64,000 nt of DNA from Sphingomicrobium sp. (GCA_051000635.1 JBPCOC010000048.1:4558-68557); one strand, 5' to 3'. Counted from the first letter of the stretch, positions 4,268-49,275 are shown. Notes: generated by a model from the letters alone, not told the origin. Numbers and translations: made by a program.

Positions 4268-4323
4268 CCGTTCGTGTCGAGCGAAGTCGAGACACGTCCC
4301 TCGACTACGCTCGGGACGAACGG
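4268..4323. repeat. REP-like palindromic repeat (CCGTTCGT...ACGAACGG), copy A
   Basis: Nested inverted repeats. Its right 37 nt match copy C with 2 mismatches. Confidence 0.85.
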
Positions 4324-6478: not shown

Positions 6479-6571
6479 CCGTTCGTCCTGAGCGGAGCGC
6501 GGAGCGCGCAGTCGAAGGGCGCTTGGCACGCCCGTCGAGCACACGCCCTTCGACTTCGCTCAGGACGAACG
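6479..6571. repeat. REP-like palindromic repeat, copy B (gap-pgk spacer)
   Basis: CCGTTCGTCCTGAGCG...GTCGAAGGGCG...CGCCCTTCGACTTCGCTCAGGACGAACG long hairpin. Confidence 0.85.
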
Positions 6572-22647: not shown

Positions 22648-22679
22648 CTAGTGTCCGCTTTGGGTGGAAAGCGGACATT
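22648..22679 (+). repeat. GTCCGC/GCGGAC palindrome E1
   Basis: CTAGTGTCCGCTTTGGGTGGAAAGCGGACATT; 11/12-bp stem with a GGGTGG loop; 4 nt after the dapE stop. Confidence 0.85.
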
Positions 22680-22791
22680 CAATTTCCAATCGTCGAGCTG
22701 ATACAAGCCTCTAGACTCTGGGATTAACTCGGCAGAGGATAATTCCTGTTTGATCGAGTCGCGGTGAATCAAACCTTGCGCTGGGGGGCGA

Positions 22792-22968
22792 ATGGCGGAC
22801 ATTGACTATCTGCGTAATCGGGCTCGTGCCGAACGCCTCGCAGCGTGCAACTCCTCCGGGTCGATCGTGCGGTTGCGCCACCTCGAGTTTGCCGAAGCTT
22901 ATGAATTTCGCGTCCGTGAGATGGAATGCAGAGGTTCGTCGTTCAGCGATGCCCCTGAACCGGCTTAA
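22792..22968 (+). CDS. Small hypothetical protein (58 aa), Y-x-R-x-RA-x-x-ER family
   Basis: Manual translation MADIDYLRNRARAERLAACNSSGSIVRLRHLEFAEAYEFRVREMECRGSSFSDAPEPA; clearly similar to the ORFs at 24041 and 46717. Confidence 0.7.
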   Translation: MADIDYLRNRARAERLAACNSSGSIVRLRHLEFAEAYEFRVREMECRGSSFSDAPEPA

Positions 22969-23019
22969 CAGACGCAAAGGACTGCGAAGCCAAGTTTAGG
23001 CGTGGCCTCAACCATCTCG

Positions 23020-23052
23020 TAACGTCCGGAATGGGTGGAAAGCGGACATTAG
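23020..23052 (+). repeat. GTCCGC/GCGGAC palindrome E2
   Basis: TAACGTCCGGAATGGGTGGAAAGCGGACATTAG. Confidence 0.85.
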
Positions 23053-23211
23053 CGCCGGTCCCTGCCCTGATCGTCAAGACTGTCAGTGGTGCGAACCGCG
23101 TCGCCACAGGTTCGGTGAAAATCTAATCGCTGCCTGGACGAACATTGCACCTGCCTCGCGCCCCCGTTCGTTCTGCCCCGACGCGAGCTTTGCGTAGGAG
23201 GAGGCCGAAAA

Positions 23212-23808
23212 ATGAATGAGACCCTGTTGATTGTCGTGGCGGTTGTCGCCGTTCTCGCCGTCGCTGGCTGGTGGTTTTACCAGCGGCGCCAGTCGGAGCA
23301 CCTGCGGTCCCGCTTCGGCAGCGAATATGAGCATGAGGTCGAGGAAAAGGGGAGCCGGCGAAAGGCCGAAGCCGAGCTGGCGGATCGGGAAAAACGAGTG
23401 AAGAAGCTGGACATTCGGCCGCTAGAGCCGTCGGCCCGCCGGGGTTTCATAGAGCGCTGGAAGGAAGTCCAGGCGCGGTTCGTAGACGACCCGCCAGCGG
23501 CGGTTGGCGAGGCTGATGATCTGCTCGGCGAGGTGATGCGCACTCGGGGCTATCCGGTCGGCGACTTCGAGCATAGCGCCGGCGATATTTCAGTCGATCA
23601 CCCGCAGGTCGTGAAGCATTACCGCGCAGGTCACGACATCGCCGTGAGGCACGAGCGCGGCGAGGCCAGCACCGAAGAGTTGCGCCAGGCGATGATTCAT
23701 TACCGGGCGCTGTTTGATGAGCTGGTCGAAGATGAAGGTGCGGAGGGTCGCGATAAGCAGGAGACGGCTACCGAGTCCCCCTCACCCGACCGGCGGAAGC
23801 GGTCCTAA
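23212..23808 (+). CDS. Hypothetical membrane-anchored protein (198 aa)
   Basis: Strong SD (AGGAGG); N-terminal TM helix followed by a charged helical domain. Confidence 0.8.
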   Translation: MNETLLIVVAVVAVLAVAGWWFYQRRQSEHLRSRFGSEYEHEVEEKGSRRKAEAELADREKRVKKLDIRPLEPSARRGFIERWKEVQARFVDDPPAAVGEADDLLGEVMRTRGYPVGDFEHSAGDISVDHPQVVKHYRAGHDIAVRHERGEASTEELRQAMIHYRALFDELVEDEGAEGRDKQETATESPSPDRRKRS

Positions 23809-23812
23809 GCCG

Positions 23813-23843
23813 CTAGTGTCCAGAATGGGCTGGAAATCGACGC
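23813..23843 (+). repeat. Degenerate palindrome E3
   Basis: CTAGTGTCCAGAATGGGCTGGAAATCGACGC; same CTAGTGTCC start as E1 and the same 4-nt offset from a TAA stop. Confidence 0.55.
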
Positions 23844-24040
23844 CGGGCCCGCCCCCTAAACATCACCGGTAGGGGGAACGCGGCGTTAACGCCCGGCGGC
23901 GGTTTTTGTGGGGCAACATGCGGGCTTCGGACTCGGTGCTGTAACGAAAGTAAGTTATCCACAGTCATCGCCGTGGGTCATCAAGCGAGGCGGCGACTGA
24001 GAGACCCACGCGCTCCCCGCTTGATATAGGAGTTGGGCAT

Positions 24041-24268
24041 ATGTCCCCTGATGATACCAGCTACTATCGGCAACGCGCAGTTGAGGAGCGAACGAGAGCG
24101 CTTACGGCTGAGTGCGAGGACGTTCGGGAGATCCACGAGGAGCTGGCACGGCTATACGACGCGCTCGTCTTGCAGGACGAGTTGCGGCCGACGATTCGGA
24201 CAATCTTCGGCTTCGGGAAGCTTCGATCGGCTTCGGCACCTGAGAAACTGACTGGATCAATGGCTTAG
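24041..24268 (+). CDS. Small hypothetical protein (75 aa), Y-x-R-x-RA-x-x-ER family
   Basis: AGGAG SD; MSPDDTSYYRQRAVEERTRAL...VREIHEELARLYD. Confidence 0.72.
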   Translation: MSPDDTSYYRQRAVEERTRALTAECEDVREIHEELARLYDALVLQDELRPTIRTIFGFGKLRSASAPEKLTGSMA

Positions 24269-24355
24269 TCTTCAGGATGGTGGTGCCGCCACACAAGCAC
24301 GGAGAGGTACTCGAAACGTAAGCGGTTCCGCCGCTTCTTCGGCAAAGACGGGTCG

Positions 24356-24389
24356 CTAATGTCCGATTTGGGTCGAAAGCGGACGCTAG
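24356..24389 (+). repeat. GTCCGC/GCGGAC palindrome E4
   Basis: CTAATGTCCGATTTGGGTCGAAAGCGGACGCTAG. Confidence 0.85.
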
Positions 24390-38904: not shown

Positions 38905-38970
38905 TCGTTCGTATCGAGCGGAGCGAAGCGCAGTCGAGATACGTCCCTCGACTTCGCTCGGGACGAACGA
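38905..38970. repeat. REP-like palindromic repeat, copy C
   Basis: TCGTTCGTATCGAGCG...GTCGAGATACGTCCCTCGACTTCGCTCGGGACGAACGA; ends 2 nt before the next ATG. Confidence 0.85.
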
Positions 38971-45495: not shown

Positions 45496-46710
45496 GTGGA
45501 TTACGACAGCATCTTCAGATCGGCCATTAGCCGCCTTCACAGCGAGGGCCGGTACCGCGTATTCATCGACATTCTGCGCACCAAGGGCTCCTACCCGAAC
45601 GCGCAATGCTTCGCCGGGCACAACGGGCCGAAACCGATCACGGTCTGGTGCTCGAACGACTATCTCGGGATGGGCCAGCACCCGTCGGTGATCGAGGCGA
45701 TGGAAACCGCGCTCCACGAGGTCGGCGCGGGATCGGGCGGAACCCGCAACATCAGCGGCAACACCCATTACCACATGCAGCTGGAGGCCGAGTTGGCATC
45801 GCTGCACGGCAAGGACGGCGCGCTTTTGTTCACGTCGGGCTATGTGTCGAACGAGGCGGCGCTCTCGACGATCGGCAAGCTTCTTCCCGACTGCGTGATC
45901 TTCTCCGACGAGCTCAACCACGCCTCGATGATCGCCGGGATCAAGAGCTCGGGCTGCGAAAAGCGCGTGTTTCGCCACAACGATATCGAGCACCTCGAGC
46001 AGCTGCTTCGCGATTGTGACCCGGACTCGCCCAAGCTGATTGCGTTCGAGAGCGTCTATTCGATGGACGGCGATATCGCTCCGATCGCCGAATTCTGCGA
46101 CCTCGCCGACCGATATGGCGCCCTGACCTATCTCGACGAGGTCCATGCGGTCGGAATGTACGGCGACCATGGCGGCGGAATCTCCGAGCGCGACGGCCTG
46201 GCACAGCGGATTACGATTATCGAGGGCACGCTCGGCAAGGCGTGCGGAGTGATGGGCGGCTATATCGCCGCGAGCCGGACGATCATCGACTGCATCCGAA
46301 GCTATGCGCCCGGCTTCATCTTCACCACCTCACTGTCGCCGGTGCTCGTTGCCGGAGCGCTGGCCAGCGTTCGGCACCTGAAGCAATCCAGGGCCGAGCG
46401 CGAGGCTCAGCAGCATTGCGCGGCAATGCTCAAGAAGAAGTTCGCCGCCGCCCGGCTTCCGGTGCTTCCGAGCGTCACCCACATCGTCCCGCTTCTGGTC
46501 GGCTGCCCGGTCAGGGCGAAAAGGATCAGCGACATTCTCCTGGCCGAATACGGGCTCTACGTTCAGCCGATCAATTTCCCGACCGTCCCGCGCGGCACAG
46601 AGCGGCTGCGCTTCACCCCCGGCCCGTGCCACACCGCCGAGATGATGGACGAGCTGACTGACGCACTGGTCGAGATCTGGAGCCGGCTGGAGCTGAAGCT
46701 CGCCGCCTGA
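45496..46710 (+). CDS. hemA: 5-aminolevulinate synthase
   Basis: [40 protein letters not shown] and GTLGKA. Confidence 0.96.
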
Positions 46711-46716
46711 GCCGTT

Positions 46717-46923
46717 ATGGAGAGCGATACTGAGTATTTTCGGAGGCGGGCCTCTGAGGAACGCACGGCCGCACTTCAGGCGCGAGATACGCGAGTGCGG
46801 AAGGCGCATCTGGAGATGGCGGAACGATACGAAGATCTCGTCCGAGCTATTGCGGGACATGAGCAGGCTCTCGGCCTGCGATCAATCGCGTCGCCTCAAG
46901 CAGCTCCGGGATACTGGCGATAA
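46717..46923 (+). CDS. Small hypothetical protein (68 aa), Y-x-R-x-RA-x-x-ER family
   Basis: MESDTEYFRRRASEERTAAL...VRKAHLEMAERYE; 6 nt after the hemA stop. Confidence 0.72.
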   Translation: MESDTEYFRRRASEERTAALQARDTRVRKAHLEMAERYEDLVRAIAGHEQALGLRSIASPQAAPGYWR

Positions 46924-46954
46924 AGAAGACTCGGCTGACGGTGCTGCCGTTAGC

Positions 46955-46988
46955 CTAATGTTGGCCGTGGGTGGAAAGCGGACACTAG
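46955..46988 (+). repeat. GTCCGC/GCGGAC palindrome E5 (left arm diverged)
   Basis: CTAATGTTGGCCGTGGGTGGAAAGCGGACACTAG. Confidence 0.8.
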
Positions 46989-47011
46989 CGCTTGGCGCCC
47001 TGCAGCTCGGG

Positions 47012-47638
47012 ATGGGGAGCCATGTAAAGATTCGTGAGAAGCAGGTCCTGCTTCAGGAGCTCCAGCACCGTGTCGCTAACAGCCTGCAGATCATTGCAAG
47101 CGTGTTGATGCAAAGCGCCAAGCGCGTTCAGTCCGAGGAGACCCGTCTCCATCTTCACGACGCCCACAGCCGGGTCATGTCGATCGCGATGCTTCAAAAG
47201 CAGCTGGCGGTCACGCAGCTTAAATCCGTTGAGCTACAGCCTTATTTCGAGGACCTGTGCCGAAGCATTTCCGCTTCCATGATTGACGATCCACAACGGA
47301 TCGCTCTCGAGACGATCGTGGATGATACGAGCACAAACTCTGATGTGTCGGTCAGCATGGGCCTGATCGTCACGGAATTGGTGATCAACGCGATCAAGCA
47401 TGCGTTCCCGGATCGGGCCGCTGGCGGCAAGATCATTGTGTCTTTTGCGGCAGACGAGGGCGGCTGGCTGCTGTCCGTGTCGGATGATGGCGCAGGAATA
47501 CCGGTCGGCGAGGAAGAGGGAAAGCCGGGTCTTGGAACAGGGATCGTCGAGGCCTTGTCCAGGCAACTTGAGGCGAGTGTGACCGTGCTCAACGCAAATC
47601 CGGGGACTCGCGTGGAAGTTCGACACGACCAAAGCTGA
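47012..47638 (+). CDS. Sensorless HisKA_2-type histidine kinase (possibly a truncated remnant)
   Basis: ELQHRVANSLQ H-box, ELVINAIKHAF, DDGAG and GLGTGIV. No PAS/GAF/TM region upstream; start uncertain (46958 or 47012). Confidence 0.75.
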   Translation: MGSHVKIREKQVLLQELQHRVANSLQIIASVLMQSAKRVQSEETRLHLHDAHSRVMSIAMLQKQLAVTQLKSVELQPYFEDLCRSISASMIDDPQRIALETIVDDTSTNSDVSVSMGLIVTELVINAIKHAFPDRAAGGKIIVSFAADEGGWLLSVSDDGAGIPVGEEEGKPGLGTGIVEALSRQLEASVTVLNANPGTRVEVRHDQS

Positions 47639-47660
47639 GGCAATCTACCGCTCGCCTACG

Positions 47661-47691
47661 TTATGTCTGCTTTCGGTCGGAGGCAGACATT
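47661..47691 (+). repeat. Palindrome E6 (compensated variant)
   Basis: TTATGTCTGCTTTCGGTCGGAGGCAGACATT; GTCTGC/GCAGAC replaces GTCCGC/GCGGAC. Confidence 0.7.
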
Positions 47692-47720
47692 CTGTACCCA
47701 CAATCTGGCGATTATGGGCC

Positions 47721-47906
47721 TTAGGGCTTGGAGCCCTCTGAGCTGGACTTGCGTAGCTGCATAATCTGTGACCGTATCTGGGGCCCCTTGAGGTGCTCGA
47801 TGACCCGCGAATACCCTTCACGGCTCAGTGTCCTTTGCAGCTCCTCAATCGATCGGCATTCAGGCGCAAGTAGAAACGCCCTTTCAATGATACTGACCCC
47901 CTGCAT
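47721..47906 (-). CDS. Small hypothetical protein (61 aa)
   Basis: MQGVSIIERAFLLAPECRSIEELQRTLSREGYSRVIEHLKGPQIRSQI; sits between E6 and E7; start could be 47960. Confidence 0.6.
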   Translation of the reverse strand: MQGVSIIERAFLLAPECRSIEELQRTLSREGYSRVIEHLKGPQIRSQIMQLRKSSSEGSKP

Positions 47907-47980
47907 AGATCGATGATCCAATTGATGGCTCGTTCGAGCAACAGGAATTTGCCCGCTCAATGTTTTTTGCGACCGGCTGC

Positions 47981-48009
47981 AATGTCCGCAATGGGTGGAA
48001 AGCGGACGT
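47981..48009 (+). repeat. GTCCGC/GCGGAC palindrome E7
   Basis: AATGTCCGCAATGGGTGGAAAGCGGACGT. Confidence 0.85.
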
Positions 48010-48049
48010 GGAGATCAATGCCTAGCAATTGAGCGGACCCAGCTGCCGA

Positions 48050-48447
48050 TCAGCAATGGCCCATCTCCCGGTGCTCAGCCGTGCATGTGCCAGCCCCCGC
48101 CTCTGGTTCTGCCTCGGGGTCCGCTGCCGGCTCGGCCTTCGGCTTAGATGCTGGCTCGCCGCTGCCTCGGTTGAAGGCTTGCGAATAGTCTGCTGCTTCG
48201 GCTCCGCCGCAGTCGACCGGCCGTCTCGCTTGTCGGCAACAGGAGCTGCAGTGTGCGCCGGCTGAGCAGGAGGTGGAGACTGCGTTTCCATCTCGCGAAC
48301 GGCGGTGGCAGAATTGGAGTTGGTAACGACGAGGTTGTTGACCGAGAGCGTGTCGATGACGTTCGCTTCGGCGGCTTCGCCGTTTTCCACCTCAGCCGAG
48401 CAAGCGGCGAGGATCGCGAGTAGCGGCACTGCAGCATACCTGATCAT
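48050..48447 (-). pseudogene. Pro/Ala-rich lipoprotein with an apparent single frameshift
   Basis: Lipobox ILAAC. The low-complexity linker continues in another frame near 48150-48160 and ends in CTAEHREMGHC-stop. Confidence 0.6.
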
Positions 48448-48828
48448 GAGTGGCTCCAAGAAGGGAATCAGAAGCACAAACGTGTTACCAAGTCCCAGTT
48501 TCCGTCCGCCCACCTGGAGCATACGGTCTTCACGACTGCACAACTTCCTCTCACCCGCAGATAGCCCCATCGCAGCACTCGTGGGCGTCTCACGACCGGA
48601 TCGCACTTTCCGGATCGACCGAAACGCTGTCCTACAGGCCGCTTAGGCGTTAGGCAGCTCCTCATGATCGGCCACGCTTCCGCATCGACAGCGCGGAAAT
48701 TCGACACTCGGGCGCCGTCTCTCGCGCTCGCGACGAGCTTCGACATTCGGAGGCTGCCTCGCGCGCGCGCGTTGAGGAGCGAACTTGGCGAACTTTCGCA
48801 CCGCCCGGATGGAGGCTAGGGAGTCCCA

Positions 48829-49275
48829 ATGCGCATCGCCCTTGCCTCCGACCACGCCGGCTTCCCTTTGAAGGATGAGCTTTCCGCCTGGCTTCGCGAC
48901 AGCGGCCATGTCGTGATCGACCTTGGCACCAACAGCGCCGACAGCGTCGATTATCCTGAGTTCGGTGCGCGCCTGGCCCGGGCCGTCGCCTCCGGTGATG
49001 CCGAGCGCGGTATCGCCGTCTGCGGCTCCGGGATTGGCATCTCGATCGCCGTCAATCGCAATCCGGCATGCCGCTGCGCCCGGGTCGACGATCCGCTGTC
49101 GGCGAGGCTCGCCCGCGAGCATAACGACGCCAACGTGCTGGCGCTCGGGGCGCGCCTGATCGGCGCGGACATGGCGCGGGCCTGCATCACTGAATTCCTC
49201 GGCACCGATTTTGCCGCCGGCCGCCACCAGCGCCGGGTCGACCAGCTCTCTAAGCTCCTGCAGGAAAGCGACTGA
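48829..49275 (+). CDS. rpiB: Ribose-5-phosphate isomerase B
   Basis: [33 protein letters not shown] and GRHQRRV. Confidence 0.95.

Follow-up and report, generated by a model that had tools for sequence, protein, structure and literature searches.

We found that the hemA-rpiB interval of a Sphingomicrobium sp. genome carries members of a family of 34-bp imperfect palindromes, which stand in the same direction along each array, with a single exception among 213 close neighbours, and which separate small gene modules. The comparisons presented here establish the family itself, its polarity, a grammar of two subtypes, X and Y, the foreign cargo, the variability of the locus and the presence of one module flanked by elements in unrelated contexts. 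The role of the elements is an inference. The explanation to which we give most weight, still somewhat short of an even chance and with no direct evidence of excision or integration, is that they serve as end or junction sites in an undescribed integron-like system of module shuffling, where they are cut and joined by an unidentified trans-acting enzyme. Breakage and joining at the element through a trans-acting recombinase or nuclease is likewise inferred. Integrons are the textbook example of how bacteria store up single genes and reshuffle them, and Sphingomicrobium is an abundant alphaproteobacterial genus of soil and freshwater.

The window, i.e. the whole stretch of 64,000 nucleotides that was analysed, contains two islands with the palindrome (Table 1). 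The original prediction had claimed that E5, E6 and E7 share the orientation of the elements of island 1, and this was confirmed, all of them being on the plus strand, with the order Y, Y, (degenerate), X in island 1. It had also placed a sensorless histidine kinase and a 61-aa ORF on the opposite strand between hemA and rpiB; the gene content held and the word sensorless did not, the kinase being, as judged below, a 5'-truncated copy. The right-hand 16-mer GGGTGGAAAGCGGACA, which is the near-invariant right-hand part of the element, occurs 6 times in the window when up to 3 mismatches are permitted, compared to 0.82 expected, and none of 100 shuffles gave 6. The island at 46924-48021 is GC-poor, with 56.7% compared to 64.3% for the genome.

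Table 1 Features of the hemA-rpiB island and of island 1 in the window (positions counted from the first letter of the window).
Feature	Coordinates	Strand	Remarks
Island 1	22648..24389	+	Elements at 22648 (Y), 23019 (Y), ~23813 (degenerate) and 24356 (X)
hemA (5-aminolevulinate synthase)	45496..46710	+	Pfam Aminotran_1_2, E = 1e-71; conserved left flank
68-aa small helical protein, function unknown	46717..46923	+	Multi-copy family; no Pfam match
E5	46955-46988	+	Y-type, spacer GGGTGG; exact right-hand 16-mer, decayed left arm
HisKA_2/HATPase histidine kinase, 5'-truncated	47031..47638 (first in-frame ATG 47012)	+	
E6	47660-47693	+	Degenerate, X-like; spacer CGGTCG, arms TGTCTGC/GCAGACA; right end of kinase module
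61-aa ORF, function unknown	47721..47906	-	79 aa from upstream TTG at 47960
E7	47979-48012	+	Y-type; good copy
182-aa ORF, lipoprotein-like N-terminus	48022..48570	-	Variable cargo; no Pfam match
rpiB	48829..49275	+	Pfam LacAB_rpiB, E = 2e-53; conserved right flank; glyA (SHMT) next

The three copies between hemA and rpiB are unequally preserved. The DNA fold of E5 showed no gain over shuffled sequence (z = 0.37), and E6 and E7 folded moderately (z about -2.8 to -3.3). With 69% identity to the reference, E6 was below nhmmer detection at E <= 10 in the profile search. It retains a 9-bp stem (z = -2.8), lies 20 nt past the stop codon of the kinase gene, at a position occupied by an element in homologues from other species, and is nearly covered by the DNA homology to the kinase copy of a relative (G107; genus genomes are labelled G plus a number), which extends to 47688, five bases before the end of E6. 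We regard E6, on account of the stem, the position and the G107 homology, as a real though weak copy. An independent Logan contig of identical sequence starts one base inside E7; the exact-protein look-up of the kinase gave nothing, and this short contig was the only return of the look-ups overall.

Homologues of HemA with 80-89% identity were found across Sphingomonadales. The 68-aa protein has 121 homologues of 55-90 aa, none of them named, and ~12 paralogues in the genome, three of which, all in this window, are followed by the palindrome. For the 61-aa ORF the Pfam search was negative; one database homologue (78% identity) and a weak match near the kinase homologue of G076 were found.

The alignment of 82 genomic copies gave a unit of 34 bp, CTAATGTCCGC-WWT-GGGTSG-AAA-GCGGACAYTAG, with no conservation outside it. 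The spacer and the right arm are almost invariant, with ~20 nt of perfect identity in the right half, and the left arm is looser. The arms, ATGTCCGCWWT and AAAGCGGACAT, enclose an asymmetric centre in a layout of 11-6-11 or 14-6-14, with a single stem of 11-14 bp and a loop of 6-12 nt; the element ends are CTAR/YTAG, with a TA dinucleotide at both ends. The nhmmer profile search (E <= 0.01, non-overlapping copies) showed ~147 copies in 53 clusters on 41 contigs of the genome from which the window comes (2.36 Mb, 74 contigs, 99.7% complete), 145 of the 147 being intergenic according to our own rough gene calls. The motif was present in 21 of 24 other genus genomes, with 0 to >60 copies each, and closed genus genomes contained up to ~84 copies. 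It was absent from 16 other genera of the order, barring one chance-level match. Judged from these searches, the family is genus-specific, being found in most genomes of the genus and not in the other families of the order. A search of a library of papers did not find the element or its 15-mer described.

The consensus hairpin is strong, with -13 to -16 kcal/mol when folded as DNA, and 30 copies lie within 10 nt of a stop, the 5' ends of genes being ~175 nt away (median). Both observations would suit a regulatory or structural site at the ends of foreign genes, such as a bidirectional terminator, an mRNA-stabilising hairpin or a site for a nucleoid or insulator protein, with no movement of DNA. 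We give this very little credit. The element logo contains no T-tract or T-run, whereas an intrinsic terminator is a GC-rich hairpin with a T-run after it, oriented with its gene, 23 copies sit between divergent gene starts, and the orientation is blind to gene strand yet locally uniform (212/213). Mismatches in the stem are about equally G-T (100) and A-C (113), which favours no transcript strand, and compensated changes are barely above expectation; together with the absence of any Rfam match to the element, this leaves an RNA hairpin under strand-specific selection unsupported. The X/Y grammar described below would also remain unexplained by a regulatory role. The near-invariant asymmetric centre and right arm point to recognition by a putative sequence-specific protein. 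Whether the hairpin or the duplex, as a dimer site of 11-6-11 or 14-6-14, would be recognised is undecided, because the covariation of the arms is weak.

Of the neighbouring copies separated by up to 10 kb, 93 of 94 are co-oriented in this genome and 212 of 213 in the five species together, with one inverted pair, and tandem pairs are direct. The four strand combinations of the flanking genes (found 39, 37, 23 and 22 times) showed that orientation is independent of gene strand, and a setting of orientation by the adjacent gene, as for a terminator, was rejected on this ground. The direction of replication was rejected in the same way, since orientation had no link to local GC skew (39 clusters, Fisher p = 0.75) and flips several times within 340 kb of the closed contig G076:C1.

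The two subtypes, Y (GGGTGG) and X (GGGTCG), differ essentially at one base of the spacer, the fifth. Tandem doublets, with a period of 35-37 nt, read X then Y in 25 of 31 cases, and clusters begin with Y and end with X in 24 cases versus 4 reversed; neither figure was reached in 5000 shuffles of the labels within clusters. We found no adjacent Y-to-X pairs, the Y-to-X intervals being module-sized with a median of 1.1 kb. The grammar is statistical and not absolute, with 59 Y and 39 X among internal single copies. Its simplest description is a unit Y-cargo-X, in which X.Y doublets mark the contacts between units and single copies are collapsed doublets. Both islands of the window fit this description; in the hemA-rpiB island the kinase lies between E5 (Y) and E6 (X-like), and a further interval starts with E7 (Y).

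Summed over the genome, the 84 intervals between elements amount to 106 kb; 50 of them hold one gene, 15 two and 16 none. Modules are mostly <4 kb, and their genes are on either strand, 40 on the same strand as the element and 51 on the opposite one. The GC content of the modules is 61.0% versus 64.3% for the genome, with a GC3 of 0.72 versus 0.80 (p = 3e-31) and a codon-usage score of 0.185 versus 0.285 (p = 2e-20). The cargo is accessory, modular and foreign-looking in composition.

We then considered where homology between modules stops. A 375-nt module, coding for an 84-aa protein, is common to the arrays C15 and C32, with elements bounding the homology on both sides and the similarity lost immediately past the right-hand CTAG. 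In the same way, the homology between C4 and C34 stops at an element. Of 67 internal repeat boundaries, 11 fall no more than 45 nt from an element, compared to ~0.6 expected, and of 148 contig ends 15 fall within 170 nt of one, compared to ~1.6 expected. The assembly k-mer was 127, i.e. the overlaps were longer than the element, and contig breaks at elements therefore suggest that the alternative neighbours are real. Interspecies BLAST of whole arrays was uninformative, with 12 of 173 boundaries at elements versus a background of ~10% (70-80% identity). A 15-kb array used as query gave mainly groESL matches, two matches per genome being scored.

The end of duplicated-module homology at elements, the usual module size below 4 kb and the stretch of perfect identity in the near-invariant right half would also be found if the elements were passive homology anchors, at which RecA-dependent exchange takes place between 34-bp repeats after transformation or delivery by gene-transfer agents, without the dedicated recombinase that we did not find (see below). 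This seems to us distinctly improbable: a repeat of ~34 bp is barely long enough for RecA-dependent exchange, and mere anchors explain neither how the copies multiply and spread to element-free sites nor why a distinction of a single base between X and Y goes with a fixed order.

In ~25 genus genomes the length of the hemA-rpiB gap varies between 41 nt and 4.6 kb: G007, G009, G016 and a fourth relative have 41-56 nt, most of the others have 0.4-3 kb, and the maximum is that of G020. Elements were present in the gap only in G000 (3) and G020 (7), in the same orientation relative to hemA; these two islands have elements in common and an entirely different cargo. No homologue of the four ORFs of this island was found in any relative's hemA-rpiB gap examined, including by tblastn of the 182-aa ORF against these gaps, and no element was found in the short gaps or in the 12 longer gaps scanned (G020 excepted), even in the element-rich G007. 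The variable gap, the unshared cargo and the element-free empty gaps show that the locus is a hotspot without fixed cargo, whose empty site is truly empty. Pure attI-like, integron-style docking was rejected: a simple docking-site model fails because the empty sites, which are the 41-56-nt hemA-rpiB gaps and the sites in C42 and C66 described below, have no palindrome. The occurrence of the same arrangement at two loci had been taken in the original prediction as a sign of a genome-wide mechanism and not of a local duplication, to be given up if the copies were spread evenly between core and accessory intergenic regions or if the cargo was fixed across the genus. The ~147 copies on 41 contigs and the presence in most species of the genus support it, the synteny of the interval showed that the cargo is not fixed, and mapping of the motif over the genome gave an uneven, almost wholly intergenic distribution with atypical modules between the elements, so that neither objection applies.

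Homologues of the window kinase from four species (82-85% identity) occupy open frames of 347-370 aa, and the full-length kinase of G007, ~340 aa, comprises PAS_4, HisKA_2 and HATPase domains and is preceded by a response-regulator gene. The DNA homology of the four species to the window kinase begins abruptly at 47030/47031. Given this start and the longer homologues, the window kinase is a truncated copy, consisting of the 3' 60% of the kinase and of the right-hand element, from which the PAS domain and the response regulator have been lost. The 5' break lies 42 nt to the right of E5 and not at E5, a point against the reading of breakage at the element.

The intact module was found elsewhere in the genus. 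An element lies 25-35 nt past the stop of the kinase homologues in G007, G107 and G050, and a block of ~1.5 kb containing the regulator and the kinase has its right end at an element in four species (G007, G106, G107 and G059). At the left end of the block, the copy in G007 is clearly of Y type, G106 and G107 retain degenerate remnants, and in G059 a partial copy stands inverted; an element or remnant in module orientation is thus present at both ends in three species, with the left trace inverted in the fourth. The DNA beyond both ends of the block is unrelated between species. At the site occupied by the block in G107, the counterpart genes of the present genome (C66:85190-85510) enclose neither block nor element, and a second empty site of that kind was observed in C42, when compared with a five-element island (G020:C76). 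The same module being flanked by elements in unrelated contexts, and the empty sites having no element, we infer that the elements travel with the modules.

We also searched for an enzyme. Y1_Tnp/RAYT (PF01797) is absent from this genome; of the 101 genus genomes, four encode it, and these are not copy-rich. IntI (TIGR02249) was not found above the 265-bit cut-off in any of the 101 genus genomes, the best matches to the model being partial, XerC/D-like and of ~75-98 bits. The IS91-type Y2 transposase (PF04986) was detected in a single element-rich genome out of the 19 tested, 12 of which were element-rich. RAYT, IntI and the IS91 transposase are unsupported as drivers, the first two being ruled out across the genus and the third being rare in the genomes tested. 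Nine tyrosine recombinases are encoded in this genome, several of them near arrays, and they resemble XerC/D or P4-type island integrases. A 235-aa serine recombinase, with Resolvase and Recombinase-type HTH regions, lies 57-99 nt past an X-type copy in three of seven orthologues (G000, G060 and G104); in G000 the gene (C50:43517-44224) follows, at 57 nt, the X that closes a Y.Y-Y-Y-X array. Next to its start, every orthologue carries a distinct palindrome of its own. As a universal driver this protein is unsupported despite the local linkage, PF00239 being absent from the element-rich closed genome G079. The driver enzyme cannot be named.

A REP- or MITE-like selfish repeat, spreading by itself through an unknown trans-acting enzyme while the genes move by other means, might account for part of these data. 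Boundaries would then coincide with elements since only intergenic targets are tolerated, and the repeat would accumulate in islands that were already variable. A short, high-copy, intergenic palindrome restricted to a narrow clade, with a very uneven number of copies (0 to >80 among species of one genus), is typical of REP, BIME and REPIN sequences; no element stands at the empty sites, 16 of the 84 inter-element intervals are geneless, self-targeted insertion could give tandem doublets and the TA at both element ends could be a target duplication. We nevertheless consider this reading unlikely, whether as regards the selfish spread or the coincidence of boundaries. The RAYT/Y1 transposase is missing here and from the copy-rich genomes, and 212 of 213 neighbours are direct and do not form REPIN or BIME pairs, whereas an inverted arrangement of pairs is usual in REPs and REPINs. 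The spacer or loop and one arm are the most conserved parts here, and there are two subtypes in fixed order, which also differs from REP/RAYT systems. Neither the X-then-Y order nor the Y-first/X-last polarity is expected from independent insertion of single hairpins, and the module of regulator and kinase has elements at both ends in four species.

The organisation resembles integrons and CALINs in that co-oriented imperfect palindromes (212/213) separate foreign-looking modules that are mostly of a single gene (50/84), many arrays have no recombinase nearby and one module may stand in different arrays. The differences are numerous. The attC sites are of 57-141 nt, with R''-L''...L'-R' boxes, extrahelical bases and a GTTRRRY core, whereas the element is of 34 bp with one stem. 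The ORFs of integron cassettes are co-oriented with the site and promoterless, whereas the genes here are on both strands relative to the element (40 and 51) and keep ~175 nt of upstream DNA. The empty sites have no site at all, and there are dozens of small arrays and not one platform. This is not an integron, because IntI, looked for in 101 genus genomes, and attC are both lacking; in alphaproteobacteria, 243 genomes were reported to be without integron, In0 or CALIN (PMC4889954).

With IS200/IS605 elements and PATEs the elements share similar co-oriented hairpins at both ends of a unit, in place of inverted terminal repeats, as well as element-free empty sites and tandem head-to-tail units. 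They differ by the lack of a Y1 transposase in copy-rich genomes, by a cargo of arbitrary cellular genes and by the absence of any detected orientation bias versus GC skew. By analogy, direct-hairpin ends of the type Y...X with clean empty sites would work most like the IS200/IS605 design. The element system is not an integron, not REP/RAYT and, by enzyme content, neither IS200/IS605 nor IS91.

The NIME/dRS3 repeats of Neisseria and the pdif sites of Acinetobacter (XerC/D) are also short palindromes with an asymmetric centre that delimit small exchangeable segments within variable regions. The units of NIME arrays consist of non-coding repeats, whereas the modules here are genes; pdif sites alternate in orientation, whereas the elements here are all direct. 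The 11-6-11 layout is, by reading, compatible with Xer/dif-type sites, and the sequence and arms of the element are, we assume, unlike the dif consensus arms.

Under the preferred explanation, that of end or junction sites for module shuffling, a unit would have a Y-type copy on the left and an X-type copy on the right, with one foreign gene, or sometimes a few, of either orientation between them. The targets of units would be intergenic hotspots, the hemA-rpiB gap among them, and the places beside the ends of resident units, and such insertion would lead to strictly co-oriented arrays with X-then-Y doublets at the unit joints. The doublets may later collapse to single copies and the units decay. 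The island studied here would then read hemA, orf68, E5 (Y), truncated kinase, E6 (X), 61-aa ORF, E7 (Y), lipoprotein-like ORF, rpiB.

A broader proposal is that the genus Sphingomicrobium, including Sphingomonas daechungensis, has its own gene-capture system, with two-state 34-bp sites and a recombinase or nuclease of a family that has so far not been connected with such elements; we put this forward as a possibility that we rather doubt than believe. We are equally reserved about its corollary, in which the system would be functionally parallel to integrons, with dozens of chromosomal arrays of single-gene modules having Y on the left and X on the right. The organisation seen in the genus looks integron-like and rests on a different, much shorter site, with an unusual two-state polarity and no known enzyme linked to it. 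If modules do move at these sites, this would be a new recombination system with a new small directional target site, would explain the flexible gene pool of genomes of 2-3 Mb and would provide a simple sequence marker for mapping the accessory DNA of the genus. If the proposal is true, a cassette system would exist in the one proteobacterial class reported to be without integrons (PMC4889954).

The presence of an array in a cultured strain makes the idea directly testable. In Sphingomonas daechungensis KACC 18115 there are 13 copies, which share one strand and lie within 21-59 kb of NZ_CP060781.1, outside the core-operon part of that sequence.

A gene for a 235-aa serine recombinase lies beside the 34-bp palindromic elements in three species. 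Its start was found 57-99 nt past an X-type (GGGTCG) element in the genome holding the window and in orthologues from two other species (loci L151 and L154); in the former, this element is the last copy of its array. A separate perfect palindrome, TTAGTAGCAAC-GTTG-GTTGCTACTAA, is located immediately 5' of the recombinase start codon.

A groES-groEL operon was found as a module between two elements in the same genome (locus L125), and a second groEL copy, 88% identical to that of contig C14, is present on contig C67. From this arrangement in the sequence, one of the two chaperonin copies appears to be array cargo. A family of small helical proteins (55-90 aa) has neither a Pfam domain nor a name; this genome contains about 12 paralogues, and the database 121 homologues. 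Each of its three window copies is followed by a palindrome, and most of the other paralogues have none after them. The motif D..Y.R.RA..ER..A...VR..H.E.A..Y is shared across the family.

Location of the features described
Feature	Position	Domains
Small helical protein copies	window 46717-46923, 22792-22968, 24041-24268	
Serine recombinase gene with its 5' flank	C50:43438-44224, outside the window	Resolvase + Recombinase-type HTH
groES-groEL operon	C14:11159-13597	
Tyrosine recombinase locus, G020	C80:1425-3248	
Motif 5' of rpiB	window 48756-48816	
Second palindromic repeat, 43 nt	window 4269-4322, 6529-6571, 38927-38969	

A tyrosine recombinase of G020, an element-rich relative of the same genus, matched the integron integrase (IntI) model at both ends, with the middle (positions 185-236) missing. 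It adjoins a Y2 transposase gene, the only one of the IS91 family among the 19 genomes tested.

The 128 kb record NZ_CP060781.1 (Sphingomonas daechungensis KACC 18115, loci L158-L161) is labelled as a plasmid. It is linear and non-mobilizable, infA, phaC and scpA are among its genes, and many genes are split, so that its appearance is that of a chromosomal fragment with frameshift errors and not of a plasmid.

Two other repeats were observed in the window. A motif of 35-58 nt directly 5' of rpiB, with three further genomic sites (C29, C45 and C61; 84-94% identity), may be a common promoter or leader. The 43-nt repeat AGCGAAGTCGAGACACGTCCCTCGACTWCGCTCGGGACGAACG, palindromic and without relation to the 34-bp element, occurs in three window copies, one of them at 93% identity to the reference.
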